From Squalus acanthias (Eukaryota): 64,000 nucleotides of DNA. Location of the stretch: contig CM059432.1 of NCBI GenBank assembly GCA_030390025.1, positions 86,864,001 through 86,928,000 on the forward strand. The letters run 5' to 3'. The translations under genes were made by a program, and so were the position numbers. The notes below the pieces were generated by a model, which searched no databases, had not been told where the DNA came from, and worked only from the letters and a program-made list of their open reading frames with translations. Below, one piece after another: positions 4,723 through 55,236 of this stretch (the first letter of the stretch is position 1; every line of letters begins with the position of its first letter).

Positions 4723-4825
4723 CTGAGGTGAATCAAAAGGGTAACGACTGCTGAACTTGAAGAGAAGCTGAAATTTCTCCCCTTCATATAATGTGCCAGG
4801 AGCTCCTTCCATGTCTACAATCCAC
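4723..4825 (-). CDS. UBE2W: UBE2W coding exon 3 (Q-WIVDMEGAPGTLYEGEKFQLLFKFSSRYPFDSPQ)
   Basis: 103-nt exon with a tttgcAG acceptor and GTAATA donor. It completes the split CA|G codon from exon 2. Intron 2 is 34,331 nt; later exons are not in the window. Confidence 0.96.
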
Positions 4826-28642: not shown

Positions 28643-29271
28643 TGTATGGCATGATGATATCACCTTGACGGGGCAAGACTGGGATCTAAAATTATTCCTG
28701 GCTATAAAATTTTCAGGGCGGGGAAGGAAAAAAAAGAGGGGTGGTCTTAAAGATATGATTATAACCACAGATATACAAGATATGGAACATAAGATTTGTT
28801 ACAGAAATTAAGACACATGGTTTTAAAGGCTATGTAGCTGAGTACAGGTTAGGGAACAGAAAGCAAGGAACAGGGGTAAATGAATGTTCTTCAGATTGGC
28901 AGGATATGCGTAATGGTGTGCTCGACGGCACCTGAACAATGTTGGGCGCTCTTATTTTCCAATTACAGGAAACTTTCGTTTATCCGGCACCCAAATATCC
29001 GGAATGCTCGCATAACCGGCAAAAATCATCCTCCGAAAACTCCTCTCAAATAACCGGCAATGTTGCCGAGTCACAGTCGAGTCTCCGCGAACGCCGAGTG
29101 CTCCGAAAACTCCTCTCAAATAACCGGCAATGTTGCCGATCCAGAGTCCGAGTCCGCGAACGCCGATTTAGTCAGTGGGGTGCTTTTCAAAACTGCCACT
29201 ACTCGGCCTCCTGGCGCTGTCGCAAGTCCGAAACATTGCAGTAGCATGAGTAGATTCTCCCGCGCTGCCTG

Positions 29272-29615
29272 GAGTCTCTTCGGATCGGCCATTTTGCTGG
29301 GTGTCTCCCACGATGCTGGTAGTCTCTTCTGATCCACCATTTTGCTGTGTGTCTCCCACGCTGCTGGTACTGTAGTCTCTTCTGATACACCATTTTGCTG
29401 TGTGTCTCCCACGCTGCTGGTACTGTAGTCTCTTCTGATACACCATTTTACTGTGTGTCTGCCACGCTGCTGGTACTGTAGTCTCTTCTGATACACCATT
29501 TTGCTGTGTGTCTGCCACGCTGCTGGTACTGTAGTCTCTTCTGATACACCATTTTGCTGTGTGTCTGCCACGCTGCTGGTAGTCTCTTCCTAACCACCAT
29601 TGTTCTGTGTGTCTT
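29272..29615. repeat. 48/53-bp minisatellite inside the transposon 5' region
   Basis: CCATT(T/G)T recurs at 29289, 29337, 29390, 29443, 29496, 29549 and 29597 (periods 48,53,53,53,53,48). Confidence 0.95.
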
Positions 29616-29653
29616 TCCATCTTCATCGGCAATTATCTCCTCCATCTTGCATT

Positions 29654-31416
29654 ATGGAATTCCCAAAAGCTGGTCCAAGCAAAAGGAAGGGAGTGGTCTT
29701 AACTTTAAAACAGAAAATCGAGATATGCCAACGACTAGAAAGGGGAGAGAAGCGTATCAACATTATGAATGAATTCAAAATCGGTTCGTCAACAATCTAC
29801 GACATCAAATCGCAGAAGGATAAGCTGCTCAAGTTTTATTCAAGCTCGGAGACATGCAAGAGTGTAGAGAAACGGCGTACGCTTCGTAAGCCTAAGCTTG
29901 AAGAGCTGGATACCGTGCTTCGTGAATGGTTTTCTCTTAAGCGTTCAGAGGGTGTTCCAATTTCCGGACCCATGCTAATCGAGAAAGCGAAGGATTTCTA
30001 TGTAAGGATGGAGCTCACTGACAAGTGTGCTTTCTCCGATGGATGGCTAACGTGCTTCAAGTTACGGCACGGGATACGACGACTCGATATTTCCGGGGAG
30101 AAGAAATCAGCTGATCACGAAGCCGCAGAAGAATACTGCAATTATTTAAATCAGATTGTGCAGCAACATGATTTGTCGCCAGCACAGATCTACAATGCCG
30201 ATGAAACTGGCTTGTTTTGGAGGTTTTTGCCAGAATCAACGCTTGCTGGGGCTAGTGAGGCTAATGCTTCAGGTTACAAGAAAAATAAAGATAGTGTAAC
30301 CGTGCTAACGCCACTGGATCACACCGGGTTAAACTTCTTGTTATCGGGAAGTATAAAAATCCCCGTGCATTTAAAAATGTGAGGCACTTACCTGTTGAGT
30401 ACAAAGCTCAAAAAAATGCTTGGATGGATAAGGAAATCTTCTCCGATTGGTTCCTTCATATTTTTGTTCCATCTGTGAAGGAACATTTCCGCAAAATAGG
30501 GAAACCTGAAGATAGCAAATGCATTTTATTGCTTGATAATTGCAGAGCCCATCCGCATGAATCCCAGTTGGTTTCGGGAAATATTTTCACCATTTATTTG
30601 CCACTAAATGTAACTTCTCTCATCCAACCCATGGACCAGGGCGTTATCCAAAATCTGAAGTGTCATTACAAGAAAGACTTCCTACGTAAACTGATAAGCC
30701 AAGATGACAATATTCAAGTTTTGCAGAAGGAATACAATATTAAAGATGCCATCTATAATGTTGCATGTTCCTGGAAATTGGTGAAAGGTCACACTCTGAG
30801 GCAAGCCTGGCGCAAATTGTGGCCTTCTGTAATGTTTGCTGAAGGTTCTTCTTCAGAGGAGGAATTTCATGGGTTCAGTGTTCGTCCCAAGAAGAGTACA
30901 ATAATGGAAATGGCTGGAATGGTGAAAAATGCAGGCCCAGCAAACCCTCTACGTCACCTCAGTGAAAGTGATATCGAGCAGTGGGTTGATGCAGATAGAG
31001 AAGTTGGTGTTGTGCATATGCTAAGTGATGATGAAATAATTCAGAATGTTTTGAATCCAAAGAAAGAAAAGGAAAGCGAGATGGAAAGTGAAGAGGATGA
31101 GATTTCTGAAGAAGAGAAGATTTCTTGGGCTAAAGCTGCAGAAGGATTTTCTACAATCCTCAAATTTGCTGAAAGGCAGAATTGCTACTCTGCACAAGAA
31201 GTTATGCAACTCCATATTCTGCATTCCACCTTTCTACAGAAAAGGCAAGAGTCCACTAAGCAAACCGACATCCGCAACATGTTTAAGAAAGCTTCCAAAA
31301 GAGTCGCAGCAGCGGAAGTGCCTGAAGAATCTGTGGCATCGGTGGAACTGCGTGATCCTGATGACCCAGCTGGCACGGATACGGATATTTCTGATGAACC
31401 AGATGACTCGGAATAA
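29654..31416 (+). pseudogene. Tigger/Jerky-like transposase (CENP-B-type HTHs + DDE_1, DD32D), one frameshift at ~30302-30306
   Basis: ATG at 29654. Catalytic motifs are [12 protein letters not shown] and QPMDQG, with 32 residues between D2 and D3. Frame 1 ends ...KDSVTVL and frame 2 resumes [16 protein letters not shown]; there are no other stops. Confidence 0.93.
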
Positions 31417-32229
31417 GTGTACAGTCAACTACAGTACTGTAGACAGTCGTTTATAAGTTTTGTTTTACTGTTAAGTAATTAAAGAGTTATGGATTACCCT
31501 CAACTGGCAGTACTGTACTTAATCAAGCATCTTCCACTATCCATTTAACACAACATTCTGTAGGTGAGTACCCAAATACTGTATACTGCACATTTCTTGA
31601 TTTTTTTATGTTAAAAATAGCCTCGGTAGATATAACTCTCCGTTATCCGGTACTTTCGATAAACCGGCACCACGCCGGTCCCGTCGATGCCGGATAAACG
31701 AAAGTTTCCTGTATGTGAATTGGACATAGGCACAGGAAGAAAGATATCCAATTTTGCTGATAATACCAAACTACGGGACATGGCAAATTGTGAGGAAGAA
31801 TGCAGGATGGCACAGGTTAGCGGAATGTTACAGTTCAACTTAGAGAAAGGTGAAGTAGTACATTTTGGGAAAAAAAAGAACAAAACCAAGTTTGTAAAAT
31901 TCATAAAGTTAAGAGGTTCTGAGGTTTCCAAAATTTTGAAAGGGTTTAAAACCTCAAAAGCTAAAGATTGTTTTCACTAGCTGGTATGCTAATGAGGGTT
32001 CAAAGGCTCGTATCACTAGAAGTTTTTTTTTTAATTCACACCGAGGAACATTGAATGCTTTACTACAAGTGGCTCTGAGGCAACAACTTGCATTTATATA
32101 GTGCCTGAAACATAGAAAATACCCCAGGGTATTATAGATAGCGGAGAGACCGAAAATAGTACAACGTTAATAATATGAATAAAGGAGTAGATGCCGAGCC
32201 AAGGAGAAATGCACAAACGCTTAGTCGAA

Positions 32230-32950
32230 AAGATGGGGACTGGATGAGCAGAAATTTCCTCCAACTAAATATTGGAAGACCGAAGCCATTGTCTTCAGTC
32301 CCCACCACAAACTCCGTTCTTGAGCCACTGATTCCATCCCTCTCCCTGGCAGCTGTCTGAGGTCGAACCAGGCCTTTCGCAACCTTGGTGTCGTATTTGA
32401 CCCCAAGATGAGCTTCCGACCACATATCCGCGCCATCACCAAGACTGCCTACTTGCACCTCCTTAACATCTCCCGACTCCACCTCAGCTCATCTGCTGCT
32501 GAAACCCTCATCCATGCCTTTCTTACTTCTGAACTTGACACTTCAACGCTCTCCTGGCCGGCCTCCCATCTTCCATCCTACAAAAACTTGTGCTCATCCA
32601 AAACTCTGCTGCCCATATCCTAACTCACACCAAGTCCCATTCACCCATCACCCCAGTGCTCGCTGACCTACATTGGTTCCAGTCCAGCAACACGTCAATT
32701 TTAAAATTCACATCTTTGTTTTCAAATCCCCCCATGGCCTCGCACCTCCCTATCTCTAATCTCCTGGAATTCCCTCCCTAAACCTCTCCGCCTCACTACC
32801 TCTTTCTCCTCCTTTAAGATGCTCCTTAAAACCTACCTCTGACCACTATCTCATGTGGCTCGAGTCAAATTTTGTTTGATAATGCTCCTGTGAAGCGCCT
32901 TAGGACGTTTTACTACATTAAAAAGGTGCTATATAAATGCAAGTTGTTGT
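32230..32950 (+). mobile_element. L2 LINE 3' end
   Basis: WMSRNFLQLNIG, HIRAITKTAYLHL and IQNSAAHIL..SPITPVLADLHW motifs, with the tail. Confidence 0.85.
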
Positions 32951-32989
32951 TGTTGTTTGGATGTGTTTGAAGACAAAGACATGAATTTT

Positions 32990-33580
32990 AAATTTAATAT
33001 GCTAGGGATAGAGCACCAATATAGATCAATGACAATGGGAGTGATAGATGAATAGGACTTAGTGCAAGACAGGAAAAAGGCAACTGAGGTTTGAATGAGT
33101 TGGAATTGTTGAGTGTGGTTGATTTGGTGGGGAGGGGTGGGCTAGAACATGAGTAAGGGTTTCCATGGCAGTGGGGTCGAGATAGGTAGGAATCGGGTAA
33201 TATTACCAAGTGGAAGTAAATGGCCTTGGTGATGGATAGGGTGTCGATTTGAAGTTCAGCTCGGAATTGAACAGGATGTGAAGGTTTTGCATGATCTAGT
33301 TCAGCCTGAGAAAATGGCAGGGGTGGGGGAGATGGAGTCAGAGGCAAGGGAAATGTGGTTATGCTGCAGGCTGAAAATTATGTCTTCAGGCTTCCCAACA
33401 TTCAGTTGGAGAAAATTTCGACTCATCTGCAACTTGATATTAGTCTGGCAGCACAGAGGAGATCGTAGGGTCAAGGGAAGTGGGTGTCACCAGCATACAT
33501 ATGGGAAATGATCCCATGTCTGCAGATGGTGTCACTGATGATAACATGTAAATGAGGAAGAGGAGAGGGGCCATGGATAG
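32990..33580 (-). mobile_element. L2 LINE fragment
   Basis: SITKAIYFHL motif on the minus strand; similar to 43380-44560. Confidence 0.7.
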
Positions 33581-39156: not shown

Positions 39157-39248
39157 TGTGTAATTGAATTTTGTACACTCTTCTCATTTAAAGTCATTCC
39201 TGGGGGTGGGTCATTTTGCAAAGCCATTAGTTCCTTCTGTAATCTTTT
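39157..39248 (-). CDS. UBE2W: UBE2W coding exon 2 (KRLQKELMALQNDPPPGMTLNEKSVQNSIT-Q)
   Basis: 92-nt exon between a tttctctattAG acceptor and a GTATGT donor. The translation matches the UBE2W UBC-domain start as recalled. Confidence 0.96.
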
Positions 39249-50860: not shown

Positions 50861-53800
50861 TGTAATGTATTATGATGTATTCATATATTATCATAATGTA
50901 TGCAGTTACTATGCACATGGATGTGTAAGAGCATGCGCAGTGCACCCTTGCATAATAAACACACACATGAACTGCAACTCATCGTGTCGTTGCCCCTCAT
51001 TTGTTCTACCCAAATATACTACATTTTTGACGACAACAATGGGATCCCAAAGCCATTTTTAGGGATCATTGAAGGACACAATGTTCAACCTTCGAGAGGA
51101 CAAGTTTAAGGTGAAGTTGTGACACATAAACTGAATTTTTGTGATGTTTTACCGTTAATGCTCCTGCAGAATCATCTGTGCTTCACCTTCGTATGTCTGT
51201 ACACAGCAAAAGCAGTGTTGATTCGCACACGCACACAGGTAGTGTGCGGAGTCATTGTTCGATGGGATCGGGACAATCATGGCCACACCTATGGGATTCA
51301 TCGGAAGTCTCGGCATGTATGACCGAGCTCAGGAACCATTCAGTTCTTACATTGAGCGGATGGAGATTTTTTTAGGGCCAATAACATTATTGAGACCAAA
51401 GGTGCAGTTGAGAATGTTTAAGCTCAAAATAAAGCAAATTGTGAACGGAAAAAAGCAATTTTTCTATTGGAGATCAGGCTAGATGTCTACGGAATGTTGA
51501 CAAACCTACTCGCGCCCGAGAAAGTGAAGGATGCATCGTTTAAAGACATTGTCACAAAACTCAAGGACCATTTCGACCCAAAGCCGTTAGAAATAGCAGA
51601 GAGCTATAAGATTGGTACCAGAAATCAAAAACAAAGTGAAACCATAAGTGAGTACATTGTAGCTCTTAAGAAACTGCCTTTGTATTGTAACTTCGGCACA
51701 TTTTTGGATTGTGCGTTGCGAGATAAGTTTGTGTGTGAACTGGTGGATGAGTGCACACAGTCCAAGTTACTGAACACTCCTAACCTAACGTTTGACATAG
51801 CATGCAAAATTGCCCTATCTATGGAGATGGCATCTGAAAGCTGGGGAACTCCGTACAACTCAAGTGACTAGTGTGCAGCTGAGGTCTACAGTCACAAAGC
51901 CACCGCCAAACCTAAAGCTATGAGACCGAGTCAAAAACATGTCAGTGAGAGCAGTTCAATTAATTGTTATCACTGCAATGGAAACCACTCACCACAGTCC
52001 TGACAATACAGAAATGCAAAGTGTTTTAACTGCCAGAAGAAAGGCCATATTTCAGCAGCTTGCAGAGCTAGATCTAAAACAGGAAGTAAGAACCATTCTA
52101 GTGGCAATGCAAAGCAGTGACAACAAAAGGAAGGAGTTCACAACCTTGACCTGAACACACCTGATGCTGAAGAACTAGGCATCAGTATCTATGCCACTAG
52201 TGGCAACGCTAGCAGTCGTGAGAAAGACTTCCATACAAAACTTTTGATCAACGAGCAATATATTGATATGTGTATCGCTACAGCGGCGGACTGCTCTATA
52301 ATGAGTAAGGACACATATGAGAGTAAGTTTAATCAAGTACCACTTACAAAGAGTACCATAGAGTTAAAAACTTACTCCGGAGAATGTACAGTTCAACACA
52401 ATGGCCAGTCAGTAAAGCTGTAGTGACAGGTCAACCCGCATGGGCAAAGACTGGTTGAGAAGGTTAAAACTAGACTGGAAAAACGTCTTCAGTGTAGATG
52501 CTTCAAAGAAGCGACTCAACACAATGTTGAACAAGTATGAAAGCATGTTCACAGACAGTTCTGATGGCATCATTGGGTATGACGCCCATATCCGCATCAA
52601 GTCCAATGCAAAGCCTGTCTATTATAAGGCAAGGCCGGTCCCCTATGCGTTGAAAAGTCAGGTGGAGGAAGAGCTAGTGAAGCTCAGAGAGACTGGAGTG
52701 CTAGTAAAAACTGACAAAAGTGAATTGGCTACCCCGATTGTGGTAGTGCCCAAAGCAGACAAAACTGTACGCTTGTGCAGTGACTACAAAGTTACTATCA
52801 ACCAAGCAGTTGATGACGAGCAGTACCCGTTACTTACATTGCAAGATTTGTATGCAGCACTCTGGGGTCAAAGGTCTTCTCCAAGCTTGACCTGTCGCAA
52901 GCTTATGCTCAGCTGAATGTTGACAAAGAGAGTCAACAATATCTCACCATCAACACACACAAGGGACTGTACTCATACACCAAGCTGCCGAATGGTGTAA
53001 AGTCCTCCCCCAAAATCTTCCAGGCTAAGATGGATAAGATTTTGCAAGGAGATCCTAATTGCTTATGCAACCAAGACGATGTGCTCATCGCAACAAGCAG
53101 TGAGGAAGAAAATCTAGAAGTGTTAGATATAGTGCTTCAAAGGTTGAATTCCCACAATGTCAAATTGAAAAGGAGTAAATCTGCTTTTGTGCAGCCCAAG
53201 GTTGCATACCTTGGTCTGATAGTTGATGCAAATGGCTTGCAACCAGTGAAGGAAAAGGTTGATGCTGTCATCGATGCTCCAAAGCCACAGAACGTGTCCG
53301 AGTTAAAATCTTTCCTTGGAATGGTCCAGTACTACGCACGTTTCTTACCTGAGTTAGCGACCATGTTAGCTCCATTGCACGAGCTCCTCAAGAAGGATGT
53401 CCAATGGAAGTGGATGATAGCGCAACAAGAAGCTTACAACGCTTATAAGAGAAGTCTCTCTAGCGATGCTCTACTTGTGCACTACAACACAGAGCGTGAG
53501 CTTAAGTTAGCGTGTGATGCTTCTAGCTATGGTGTGGGAGCTGTCATAAGCCACATAATGGATGATGGCCAAGAGAAACCAATCGTGGTCGCGAAAAGAA
53601 CGAAAGAAACTACGCGCAAATTGAAAAGGAAGCACTCGCCATAGTGTTTGGAATCAAGAAATTGCAACAGTTCCTGATTGGCAGAAAGTTTACCCTGGTA
53701 ACTGATCACAAACTGCTCCTAGCAATGTTGGGCTCAAATCTGCCATCCCTGCAATGGCCGCATCGAGAATGCAACGTTGAGCAGTGTTGTTTTCACACTA

Positions 53801-55236
53801 TGACTACACGATTGAATATCGCACTTCAAAGCAAAACGCAATCGCAGATGCCTTGTCCAGGTTGCCACATGAGGATTCGTGTTGGGAGTGAAGGTGTGAT
53901 CTTCACGCTAGGTGCAGTTGACAAAGACTTTCCTCTGACTGCAACTGAGATTGCAGATGAGACTCAAAAGGACTCAGTACTGAAAAGATTGTATGAAAAC
54001 ACCTTGAATGGATGGACTGATCAGTGTATGGAGACAGAATTGAAACCATTCTATAGCCGTCGGACTGAATTGTTTTGTGAGCAAGGTTGTACTAAGTGGG
54101 GAAACAGAGTGGTGGTACTTACTTCTTTGAGAGATAGAATTCTGGCCGAACTTCATACTGAACATCCAGGGGTTGTCAGTGTGAAATCAATTGCAAGAAG
54201 CTTTGTTTACTGGCCTGGATTGGACAGTGATCTTGAATCACTTGTCAGCAAATGCAGCGTTTGCCAAAATTGCAGAAACAAACCACCTAAAACTCCATTA
54301 CAACCCTAGTCATGGCCAAGTAGACCTTTTCAGAGAGTACATGTAGACTTCTGTGAGAAAGCAAATGATGAATTTCTGGTACTTGTAGATAGTCACTCAA
54401 AGTGGATTGAAATGAAACACATGGGTTCAAATACTACAACTGAACGTACCAAAGATGTTCTTATAAAGGGAATTAAGGGTTACGGGGAGCGGGCAGGAAT
54501 TTGGACATGAGTCTAGGTTCGGATCGGTCATGGCCCTGTGGGTAGCATAGCGGGCCCAGGGGCCGTGTAGCCTGATCCTGCTCCTATTTCGTGTGTCCAA
54601 TTCTGTTAGGTTCAGGAGATGGTTCTCTGATAGTAGATTGGCGGTTAGGATCAGATCAGCCATGATCTTATTGAATGGCGGAGCAGGCTCGAGGGGCCAA
54701 TTGGCCTACTCCTGCTCCTATTTCTTATGTCTTATGTTCTTAGATGAGTTGAGGTCTATCTTTGCATGTCACAGCTTACCTGAAGAGCTTGTTTCTGACA
54801 AAGGCCCTCAGTTTCGTTCTACGCTGTTCCAATAATTCATGAAATGGAATGGTATCAAACACACTCTTGTTCCACCATATCATCCAGCTTCAAACGGAGC
54901 AGCCAAAAGGTCAGTCAGAATAGCGAAAGAAGCTCTCAAAAAGCAAGTGTTGCAGGGTTGTTTTGGACTCAGCATGAAGCAATGTTTGGCAAATTTCTCA
55001 TTGAAGTACAGAACTACTCCGCACACTACAACTTTACATAACCCAGGAGAACTCTTGATGAAGAGGAGACTGAGAACATGATTGAGTCTTCTTCAACTGA
55101 ATTTGGCCCCAAGAGTTGAACAAAAACAGTTGAGTCAGAAACATCATTATTTGGTTGAAATTGGTGACAAAATCCAAAGTGTTCATGTAGATCAAATGAT
55201 CTCTGCAAGAGATGAACGAAGACATGATTGTGAACC
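50861..55236 (+). mobile_element. Gypsy (Mag-like) LTR retrotransposon, decayed and 3'-truncated: 5' LTR 50861-51023, PBS 51028-51045, gag-PR-RT-RH-IN
   Basis: TGTAAT...ACTACA LTR and a PBS matching the tRNA-Ser(GCT) 3' end at 14/18 as recalled. Gag starts MATPMGFIG..YIERME and has two CCHC-like knuckles. RT has TPIVVVPK and NQDDVLI, RH has LACDASSYGVGAV, and IN has HPG..C..C and PPYHPASNG. Many stops and frameshifts. Confidence 0.92.
54458..54741 (+). mobile_element. Tandem CR1-type 3' tails inserted into the Gypsy integrase
   Basis: AGATG is duplicated at 54453-54457 and 54742-54746. Removing the insert restores TERT-DELRSIFA. Confidence 0.8.

Follow-up and report, generated by a model that had tools for sequence, protein, structure and literature searches.

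The window analysed here is a stretch of 64,000 nucleotides (nt) of the genome of the shark Squalus acanthias (assembly GCA_030390025.1, contig CM059432.1, positions 86,864,001 to 86,928,000 of the forward strand). It contains a copy, 2,746 nt long, of a DNA transposon of the Tigger/pogo type (28966..31711, + strand), inserted inside an old long interspersed nuclear element (LINE) and antisense within the second intron (34 kb) of the gene UBE2W. The copy is bounded by two terminal inverted repeats (TIRs) of 24 nt, the left one, CAGGAAACTTTCGTTTATCCGGCA, at 28966..28989 on the + strand and the right one at 31688..31711 on the - strand, and by the dinucleotide TA on each side (28964..28965 and 31712..31713). 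The initial annotation, made from the letters alone, had described the TIRs as perfect and the TA as a target-site duplication, and both descriptions hold. The TIRs are complementary at 24 of 24 positions, or over 26 nt when the TA of each side is counted, while shuffling the 5-kb region 200 times gave no perfect inverted match longer than 18 nt. The element interrupts a decayed LINE reverse-transcriptase fragment, whose left and right halves were placed by flank alignment at 28777..28963 and 31714..31869 (both + strand). When the flanks are joined after removal of the element and of one TA, they match a LINE reverse transcriptase in a single piece across the junction, with an E-value of 5e-18 (by tblastn and a softer blastn; plain blastn gave no LINE partner). 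This shows that the TA is a true target duplication and that the insertion is clean.

The ends of the element are rich in WWWCCGG motifs. Five direct ones stand at 28981, 28996, 29013, 29051 and 29121 (28981..29127, + strand), and two subterminal ones, inverted relative to the right TIR, at 31644..31667 (+ strand). The outer 200 nt of both ends (400 nt) hold 9 matches against 2 in the inner 2,346 nt, and these end-crowded motifs are likely the sites bound by the transposase. Two copies of a 70-nt unit, with one motif each, occupy 29031..29166 (+ strand). They are followed, still ahead of the start codon in the 5' non-coding part, by six copies of a 53-nt minisatellite unit (29269..29581, + strand). 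The number of these units differs among otherwise near-identical copies of the element, whose lengths run from 2,541 to 2,910 nt in steps of about 53 nt; in the oldest wave of copies (see below) the period is 48 nt.

The transposase of the window copy is read in two overlapping frames. Its 5' part (29654..30306, + strand) contains the domains CENP-B_N (amino acids (aa) 10-61, E-value 2.7e-17) and HTH_Tnp_Tc5 (aa 83-143, 2.5e-14) and the first catalytic aspartate, D183 (codon 30200-30202). Its 3' part (30307..31416, + strand, stop codon 31414-31416) contains the domain DDE_1 (1e-49) with D298 (30535-30537) and D331 (30634-30636), an acidic linker and C-terminal helices. The three aspartates form a complete DD32D triad, as had been reported. 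The single frameshift reported with it is a 10-nt deletion after 30306 (30306..30307, + strand) relative to sister copies, which puts the reading out of frame before the second and third catalytic residues are reached; the identical gap is present in two other copies (L017 and L019). The only sequence match of the transposase in the PDB is CENP-B (1HLV). An AlphaFold model of middling quality (predicted local distance difference test 67, predicted TM-score 0.47) finds its best fold matches in Mos1 mariner complexes and CENP-B and confirms no more than the fold. By the features used for pogo/Tigger elements in PMC7386202, the element has CENP-B_N together with HTH_Tnp_Tc5, a DDE_1 domain within the range DD29-36D, TIRs of at most 40 nt and a TA duplication. 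It also groups with JRK and with proteins matching the Tig1-like rows of Gao et al. (the other named pogo families lie outside the tree). The intact transposase of an autonomous element is missing from the window copy and present in sister copies. The window copy is dead: a broken, frameshifted member of an autonomous Tigger DD32D transposon of the pogo superfamily.

We searched the genome (3.71 Gb) for further copies; the samples described below are the best 30-40 matches of each search. All 40 matches scored, out of 3,192 candidates, are copies of the family. Among the best 30 loci, both TIRs were found in 29, an open reading frame (ORF) of 590 aa in 17 and one of 605 aa in one more. A 30-mer around D331 has 997 sites genome-wide (control 0) and a looser 24-mer 1,005; the genome contains about 1,000 dispersed coding copies. 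Ends made of TA and TIR are far more numerous, 7,166 with at most one mismatch (reversed control 0), and most of them belong to miniature inverted-repeat transposable elements (MITEs). Indeed, among the first 30 TIR loci, all 14 short elements at TIR matches of contig C1 are 323-425 nt long and built from the ends of the element, either as 419-425 nt (the first 315 and last 103 nt) or as 323-333 nt. Dispersed copies with differing flanks thus coexist with non-autonomous derivatives. In 58 full copies the target is A/T-rich and palindromic around the TA, which stands on both sides in 56. When 30 copies, all exact probe matches and four of them tandem duplicates, were taken in order along contig C1, they differed by 3.1% on average and nine had an ORF of at least 585 aa; extrapolated to about 1,000 copies, this gives perhaps a few hundred unbroken ORFs.

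The alternative that the element is a domesticated, single-copy orthologue of JRK, which the initial annotation had named as the outcome to be expected from one conserved locus, draws on RefSeq, where the close relatives are called "jerky protein homolog". This alternative is refuted by the copy number. The dispersal of these roughly 1,000 coding copies, the perfect TIRs, the frameshift seen here and a ratio of nonsynonymous to synonymous substitutions (dN/dS) of about 1 also speak against it, and its probability is negligible.

A subfamily tree was built from 59 copies, nine duplicate loci being left out. Loci L033, L034, L035, L038 and L040 are near-identical and share one flank and a stop codon, and L078-L081 form a tandem array with a spacing of 20 kb (several of the loci lie on contig C3806); hence these were taken as segmental or tandem duplicates. 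The mean distance of copies from the majority sequence of their own group is 1.3-1.7% in the older groups, 0.43% in the group with the 590-aa ORF and 0.10% in the group with the 585-aa ORF. The window copy belongs to the 590-aa group, departs from its majority by 17 changes and is the most diverged of the 29 copies compared (0.81%); it is a member of a middle-aged wave. Its retained CpGs had been read as a sign of youth. The retention is real, with an observed/expected ratio of 0.77 against 0.37 in the remainder of the window, but it is a weak clock. The youngest wave (the 30 best matches to L039) is of a different kind: the full 585-aa ORF is present in 28 copies and both TIRs in 29, and four whole copies of 2,642 nt are identical, as are two of 2,699 nt, with differing flanks. 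Its copies carry on average 1.07 private changes per 2,050 nt (0.05%), and 10 of 29 have none. At the mutation rate of the epaulette shark, 7e-10 per generation (confidence interval 1.4-14.1e-10; PMC10587355), this corresponds to about 0.7 million generations, the rate being that of another species. The family was amplified in several waves, the youngest of which is very young in sequence terms.

It could be supposed that the family is transposing today. The four identical elements, found in four places on three chromosome-scale contigs, the ten unchanged copies, the perfect TIRs and the intact ORFs would all agree with this. However, with a mean of 1.07 private changes, a burst which is already finished would by chance leave some copies unchanged, so that identity does not imply present activity, and the 0.7 million generations also tell against it. 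We regard present transposition as doubtful. Within the host, the transposase evolves neutrally: dN/dS of private changes is 0.93, 1.12 and 1.70, and between subfamily majorities it is 0.50-1.01 (simple counts); an uncorrected count on a sample leaning toward intact copies gave 0.62.

The ends of the element changed from wave to wave. In the oldest coding group the two ends are unlike, with CAGGAAACTCTCGTTTAAACGGCA on the left and CAGGAAACTCTTTGGTATCCGGCA on the right (both recovered at 17 of 20 loci), while the two younger coding groups have the perfect TIR. End symmetry may be linked to renewed amplification, the unequal TIRs being those of L225-L244 and the perfect ones those of L183-L212, L213-L224 and L245-L284. 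There exists a further set of MITEs, mostly of 230-300 nt, whose ends start with CAGT and are only 75-80% like the present ends of the element; left and right differ in them as they do in the oldest coding wave. Left-type ends number 3,548 at two mismatches, a count which includes the oldest coding group, and no coding partner of these MITEs was seen in 52 loci chosen by the MITE ends.

In a protein search with the intact copy L006, the relatives among the best 120 of 886 matches were Latimeria (67-69%), Alligator (67%), Chrysemys (65%) and Chiloscyllium (64%), then possum JRK (58%) and mouse JRK (52%); proteins of snails, spiders and insects reached 46-54%. All the close ones in this set bear the RefSeq label quoted above. 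The 65-67% identity to coelacanth and turtle would be explained if the family had entered its host by fairly recent horizontal transfer, an idea raised at the outset and compatible with the reading of the family that we prefer below. Neutral evolution in the host alone cannot keep 67% identity over the gnathostome split, and for DNA transposons purifying selection is reported only across transfers, evolution within a genome being neutral (PMC7070016). Moreover, the looser coding probe adds just 8 sites (1,005 against 997), which means that coding copies stop at a few percent of divergence, and vertebrates and invertebrates are intermixed in the wider clade. On the other side, against a recent jump from outside sharks, the nearest relatives are shark genes, no named non-shark protein among those best 120 matches exceeds 69%, and the older related MITEs, with their 75-80% similarity and common asymmetry, fit a longer residence. 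Finally, 17 sequencing runs under 9 organism codes contain at least half of the words searched, and the four which were aligned all contain the SINE (short interspersed nuclear element) and LINE repeats of the host flanks as well. Unique flank is covered by one of them alone (X7); the remaining three may come from other species or be host DNA at low coverage. A fairly recent transfer is a possibility to which we give somewhat less than even chances, whereas transfers somewhere in the past of the clade are likely.

The claim which made this locus attractive was that its transposase resembles mammalian JRK along its whole length, so that the element would be a recently active member of the lineage which gave rise to JRK. 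The resemblance is genuine. The protein is 51% identical to a primate-type JRK (P0042, which by eye begins like the JRK construct of Table S3 in PMC11601247) and 58% to possum JRK, it shares 87 of 134 residues of the DNA-binding domain with the former, and all five JRK motifs named in the initial annotation are found in P0042. This could suggest that the element is the direct progenitor or the exclusive sister of JRK. But the turtle protein P0002 (60% to primate-type and 71% to possum JRK) and the Latimeria protein P0004 (61% and 70%) are closer to both JRKs. We computed three trees: FastTree on 172 rows, LG+G4 on 53 rows and a mixture model on 27 rows. The query joins Rhincodon and Chiloscyllium (support 100/99 and 97/93), and therian JRK nests with Latimeria_b, turtles and echidna (99/96 and 98/94). 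Forcing the query beside therian JRK costs 113 log units, with p=1.98e-6 in the approximately unbiased (AU) test on the 27 rows. Published material points the same way: the label order in Fig. S5 of PMC7386202 places Chpi- and Alsi-Tig1-like next to platypus JRK, and the Codebook study names another element, Tigger15a (PMC13538051). That the shark element is JRK's direct progenitor or exclusive sister is thus very improbable. What stands of the claim is that the element is bounded by TIRs, recently mobile and present in many copies, and that it belongs to the clade which holds JRK; the sister or progenitor position is not supported (AU p=2e-6), turtle, alligator and coelacanth proteins being closer. 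By these comparisons the family is placed as a chondrichthyan branch beside the coelacanth, crocodilian, turtle and mammal branch, and the shark element appears as a cousin of JRK's progenitor.

The protein comparison also bears on how JRK may have lost its catalysis. The initial annotation had stated that JRK has QPMEQ where the element keeps QPMDQ. The E is indeed found in 22 of 58 therian-clade JRK proteins, but it is not general, the other 36 having kept the third D. All 58, however, are devoid of 8-9 residues directly behind the third catalytic position; the stretch that follows it counts 15-16 residues against 24 in the query, and the residues in question are retained in the query and in the coelacanth, turtle and alligator proteins. 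Because all 58 share the deletion while 36 keep D-D-D, the deletion rather than the change from D to E is the shared candidate for this loss.

Other members of the clade were met in these searches. P0009 (Pelodiscus) and P0063 (Geotrypetes), on two separate branches, combine a JRK-clade transposase with a KRAB domain (PF01352), which suggests further independent captures. P0006 and P0010/P0290 (Chiloscyllium and Rhincodon) are single-locus proteins of carpet sharks and form the sister group of the mobile family. A search of the Squalus genome with the Chiloscyllium protein gave the transposon family alone, at 65-66%, and no orthologue among the 78 of 2,140 candidates scored in a strict first look. 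Viral contigs gave 9 pattern matches and no relative. In metagenome contigs, the best match was at 52% and no TIR-bearing vertebrate element of the JRK clade was seen (80 loci kept of 375). Distant metagenome elements (33-47%) also have TTATCCG or TAATCCG within their TIRs, so this core is not specific to JRK. Five metagenome loci (L103, L104, L105, L107 and L108, the last two being identical) contain the 52% ORF and are 88-93% identical to each other over 3.6-7.6 kb including their flanks. No TIR pair was found around them, and they look like a single locus, orthologous between related animal hosts and possibly domesticated.

Taken together, the locus very probably holds a frameshifted copy of an autonomous pogo/Tigger DD32D cut-and-paste transposon which was amplified in several waves and is a cousin of JRK's progenitor. 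By analogy with the biochemistry of Tc1/mariner and pogo elements, the two N-terminal helix-turn-helix (HTH) domains would attach to the WWWCCGG motifs of the TIRs and of the stretches behind them, the two ends would be paired, the DDD domain of RNase-H-like fold would excise the element and insert it at a TA, and gap repair would double this TA. The enzyme of intact copies would act in trans on broken copies and on MITEs. Such action would account for the MITEs, for decay under neutrality and for the existence of broken copies like that of the window, which could still be moved in trans, yet makes no enzyme.

Several points weigh against this reading. Samples made of the best 30-40 matches are biased toward intact copies, and no RNA run is on record among the sequencing runs listed. 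The trees were built with JRKL, TIGD2, TIGD5, TIGD7, CENPB and Tigger1-20 outside them, and their outgroups are mostly unnamed relatives at 35-43%. In the 53-row tree, no star marks the branch on which sharks and the sarcopterygian group meet, and the mixture model shifts Latimeria_a beside the shark group and moves two KRAB/crocodilian rows out. The deep branching order is hence unsure.

A bolder version can be formulated, in which the family would be a transposon of the JRK clade that is natively intact and active to this day, whose TIR and WWWCCGG array is bound by the HTH pair of human JRK, whose lineage fed at least two domestications (mammalian JRK and the carpet-shark gene) as well as KRAB fusions, and whose TIRs passed from asymmetric to perfect within one genome. 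We think this unlikely in its entirety. If it were true, a working ancestral enzyme would be at hand to test the loss of catalysis in JRK (8-residue deletion or D-to-E) and its kept DNA specificity. For the preferred reading, too, the family offers a ready pair of enzyme and ends with which one may ask what JRK's ancestor did, whether JRK recognises these ends or interferes with transposition, and which change ended catalysis.

As for the surroundings, the intronic location given by the initial annotation is established by coding exon 2 of UBE2W (39157..39248, - strand), the upstream border of the intron holding the element, and coding exon 3 (4723..4825, - strand). The likely first exon of this gene (MASMQ) was located by eye at 40423-40409, in a CpG island. 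To the right of the element, 32081-32995 contains nested inverted pairs (26 nt at 32081/32924 and 30 nt at 32697/32966) and pieces of high-copy SINEs and LINEs. Fragments resembling gag/pol of a long-terminal-repeat retrotransposon (reverse transcriptase, RNase H and integrase-like text, in several broken frames) were seen by eye at 51422-54309.

The lineage, its type of TIR and the binding of JRK to its progenitor are already in print (PMC7386202, PMC13538051, PMC11601254). Gao et al. 2020 derived JRK from Tigger and listed "pseudogenes" of JRK for coelacanth and frogs as well as for cartilaginous fish (PMC7386202). In Table S1 of the same paper, Tig1-like rows are given for turtles (Chpi-Tig1-like1, Chmy-, Mate-, Pesi-, Apsp-, Tetr-) and crocodilians (Alsi-, Almi-, Gaga-), that is, TIR-bounded elements of 586-601 aa and 4-26 copies with TIRs such as CAGTAAAAGCTGTGTTATCCGGCA, and the label order of its Fig. 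S5 puts Chpi- and Alsi-Tig1-like between platypus JRK and coelacanth JRK-PS. These reptile elements resemble ours by their DD32D-type transposases (P0002, P0003 and P0005 were matched to the listed 591, 597 and 586 aa through their length and the text of their N-terminus rather than through accessions), by TIRs of 22-26 nt ending in TTATCCGGCA, of which turtle and shark share 17 of 24 positions by eye, and by the TA duplication. By eye, three direct motifs are spaced alike at the left ends of the shark element and of the Gavialis row, and so are two inverted motifs at the right end in turtle rows. They differ in being closer to JRK, low in copy number and decayed, with imperfect TIRs starting with CAGT or CAGC, whereas in the shark family the coding copies number about 1,000 and the MITEs thousands, the TIRs are perfect and start with CAGG, and there are intact native ORFs. 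For cartilaginous fish that table has a single row, an unrelated Tig1B.

For the Codebook study, Tigger15a is the best TBLASTN match of JRK in Dfam and its likely source (PMC13538051, including Supplementary Note 2); JRK binding is enriched on Tigger15a, with a predicted site within its TIRs (PMC13538051, PMC11601247, PMC11601254). Tigger15a is merely listed in PMC5753468, and JRK goes unmentioned in PMC7325037. Tigger15a is an extinct therian fossil, with which the shark element was compared through the published description. The proposal that the shark element reveals the ancestral TIR of JRK is not supported, closer reptile TIRs standing in Table S1 of PMC7386202 and JRK binding to Tigger15a being documented. 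Likewise, the lineage has already been catalogued as the source of JRK, but this is not so for the shark family: neither the open literature nor look-ups of Table S1 (rows 5-36 of the 45 "Tig1-like" ones) gave this family, how large and young it is or how its TIRs changed, Repbase, Dfam and subscription journals lying outside this search; the family may already bear a RepeatModeler or Repbase name. What is new is a family of the JRK clade that is abundant and natively intact in a shark, lays out its likely binding sites as the reptile elements do and changed its TIRs between waves; the relatives of JRK known earlier are Tigger15a, a mammalian fossil, and reptile elements that are decayed and low in copy number.

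With mammalian JRK itself, the shark element shares two HTH domains, DDE_1, the DD32D/E spacing and the C-terminal region, at 51-58% identity. JRK, however, is a stationary single gene under purifying selection, with a Ka/Ks of 0.21 (Table 1 of PMC7386202), and the shark family is not a single stationary TIR-less copy under such selection and does not have the therian 8-residue deletion. Both HTH recognition regions differ also (GMST against GSST, and WLWRFK against WLTCFK). The coelacanth offers a further comparison: 15 RefSeq proteins called "jerky protein homolog" (P0001 and P0266-P0279) lie within 90% identity on several long contigs, and Gao et al. entered one coelacanth protein among the pseudogenes of JRK (PMC7386202). 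To judge from sequence, this set looks like an unrecognised multi-copy transposon annotated as genes, and entries so named in the annotation of sharks and of the coelacanth can be copies of a transposon. It is 67-69% identical to the query; P0004, of a second coelacanth lineage, is closer to JRK than the shark family, and the coelacanth family may even be the closer proxy for JRK's progenitor. Lastly, Passer is a DD35D pogo family of fish genomes with a BrkDBD, the ancestor of POGK/POGZ, and natively active in cells (PMC9976928). The shark element belongs to the same superfamily and bears the same signs of youth, so that it is a candidate for a native gene-transfer tool of the Tigger family as Passer is for its own; but Passer belongs to another family and its activity was seen in cells, whereas the shark element is known from its sequence.

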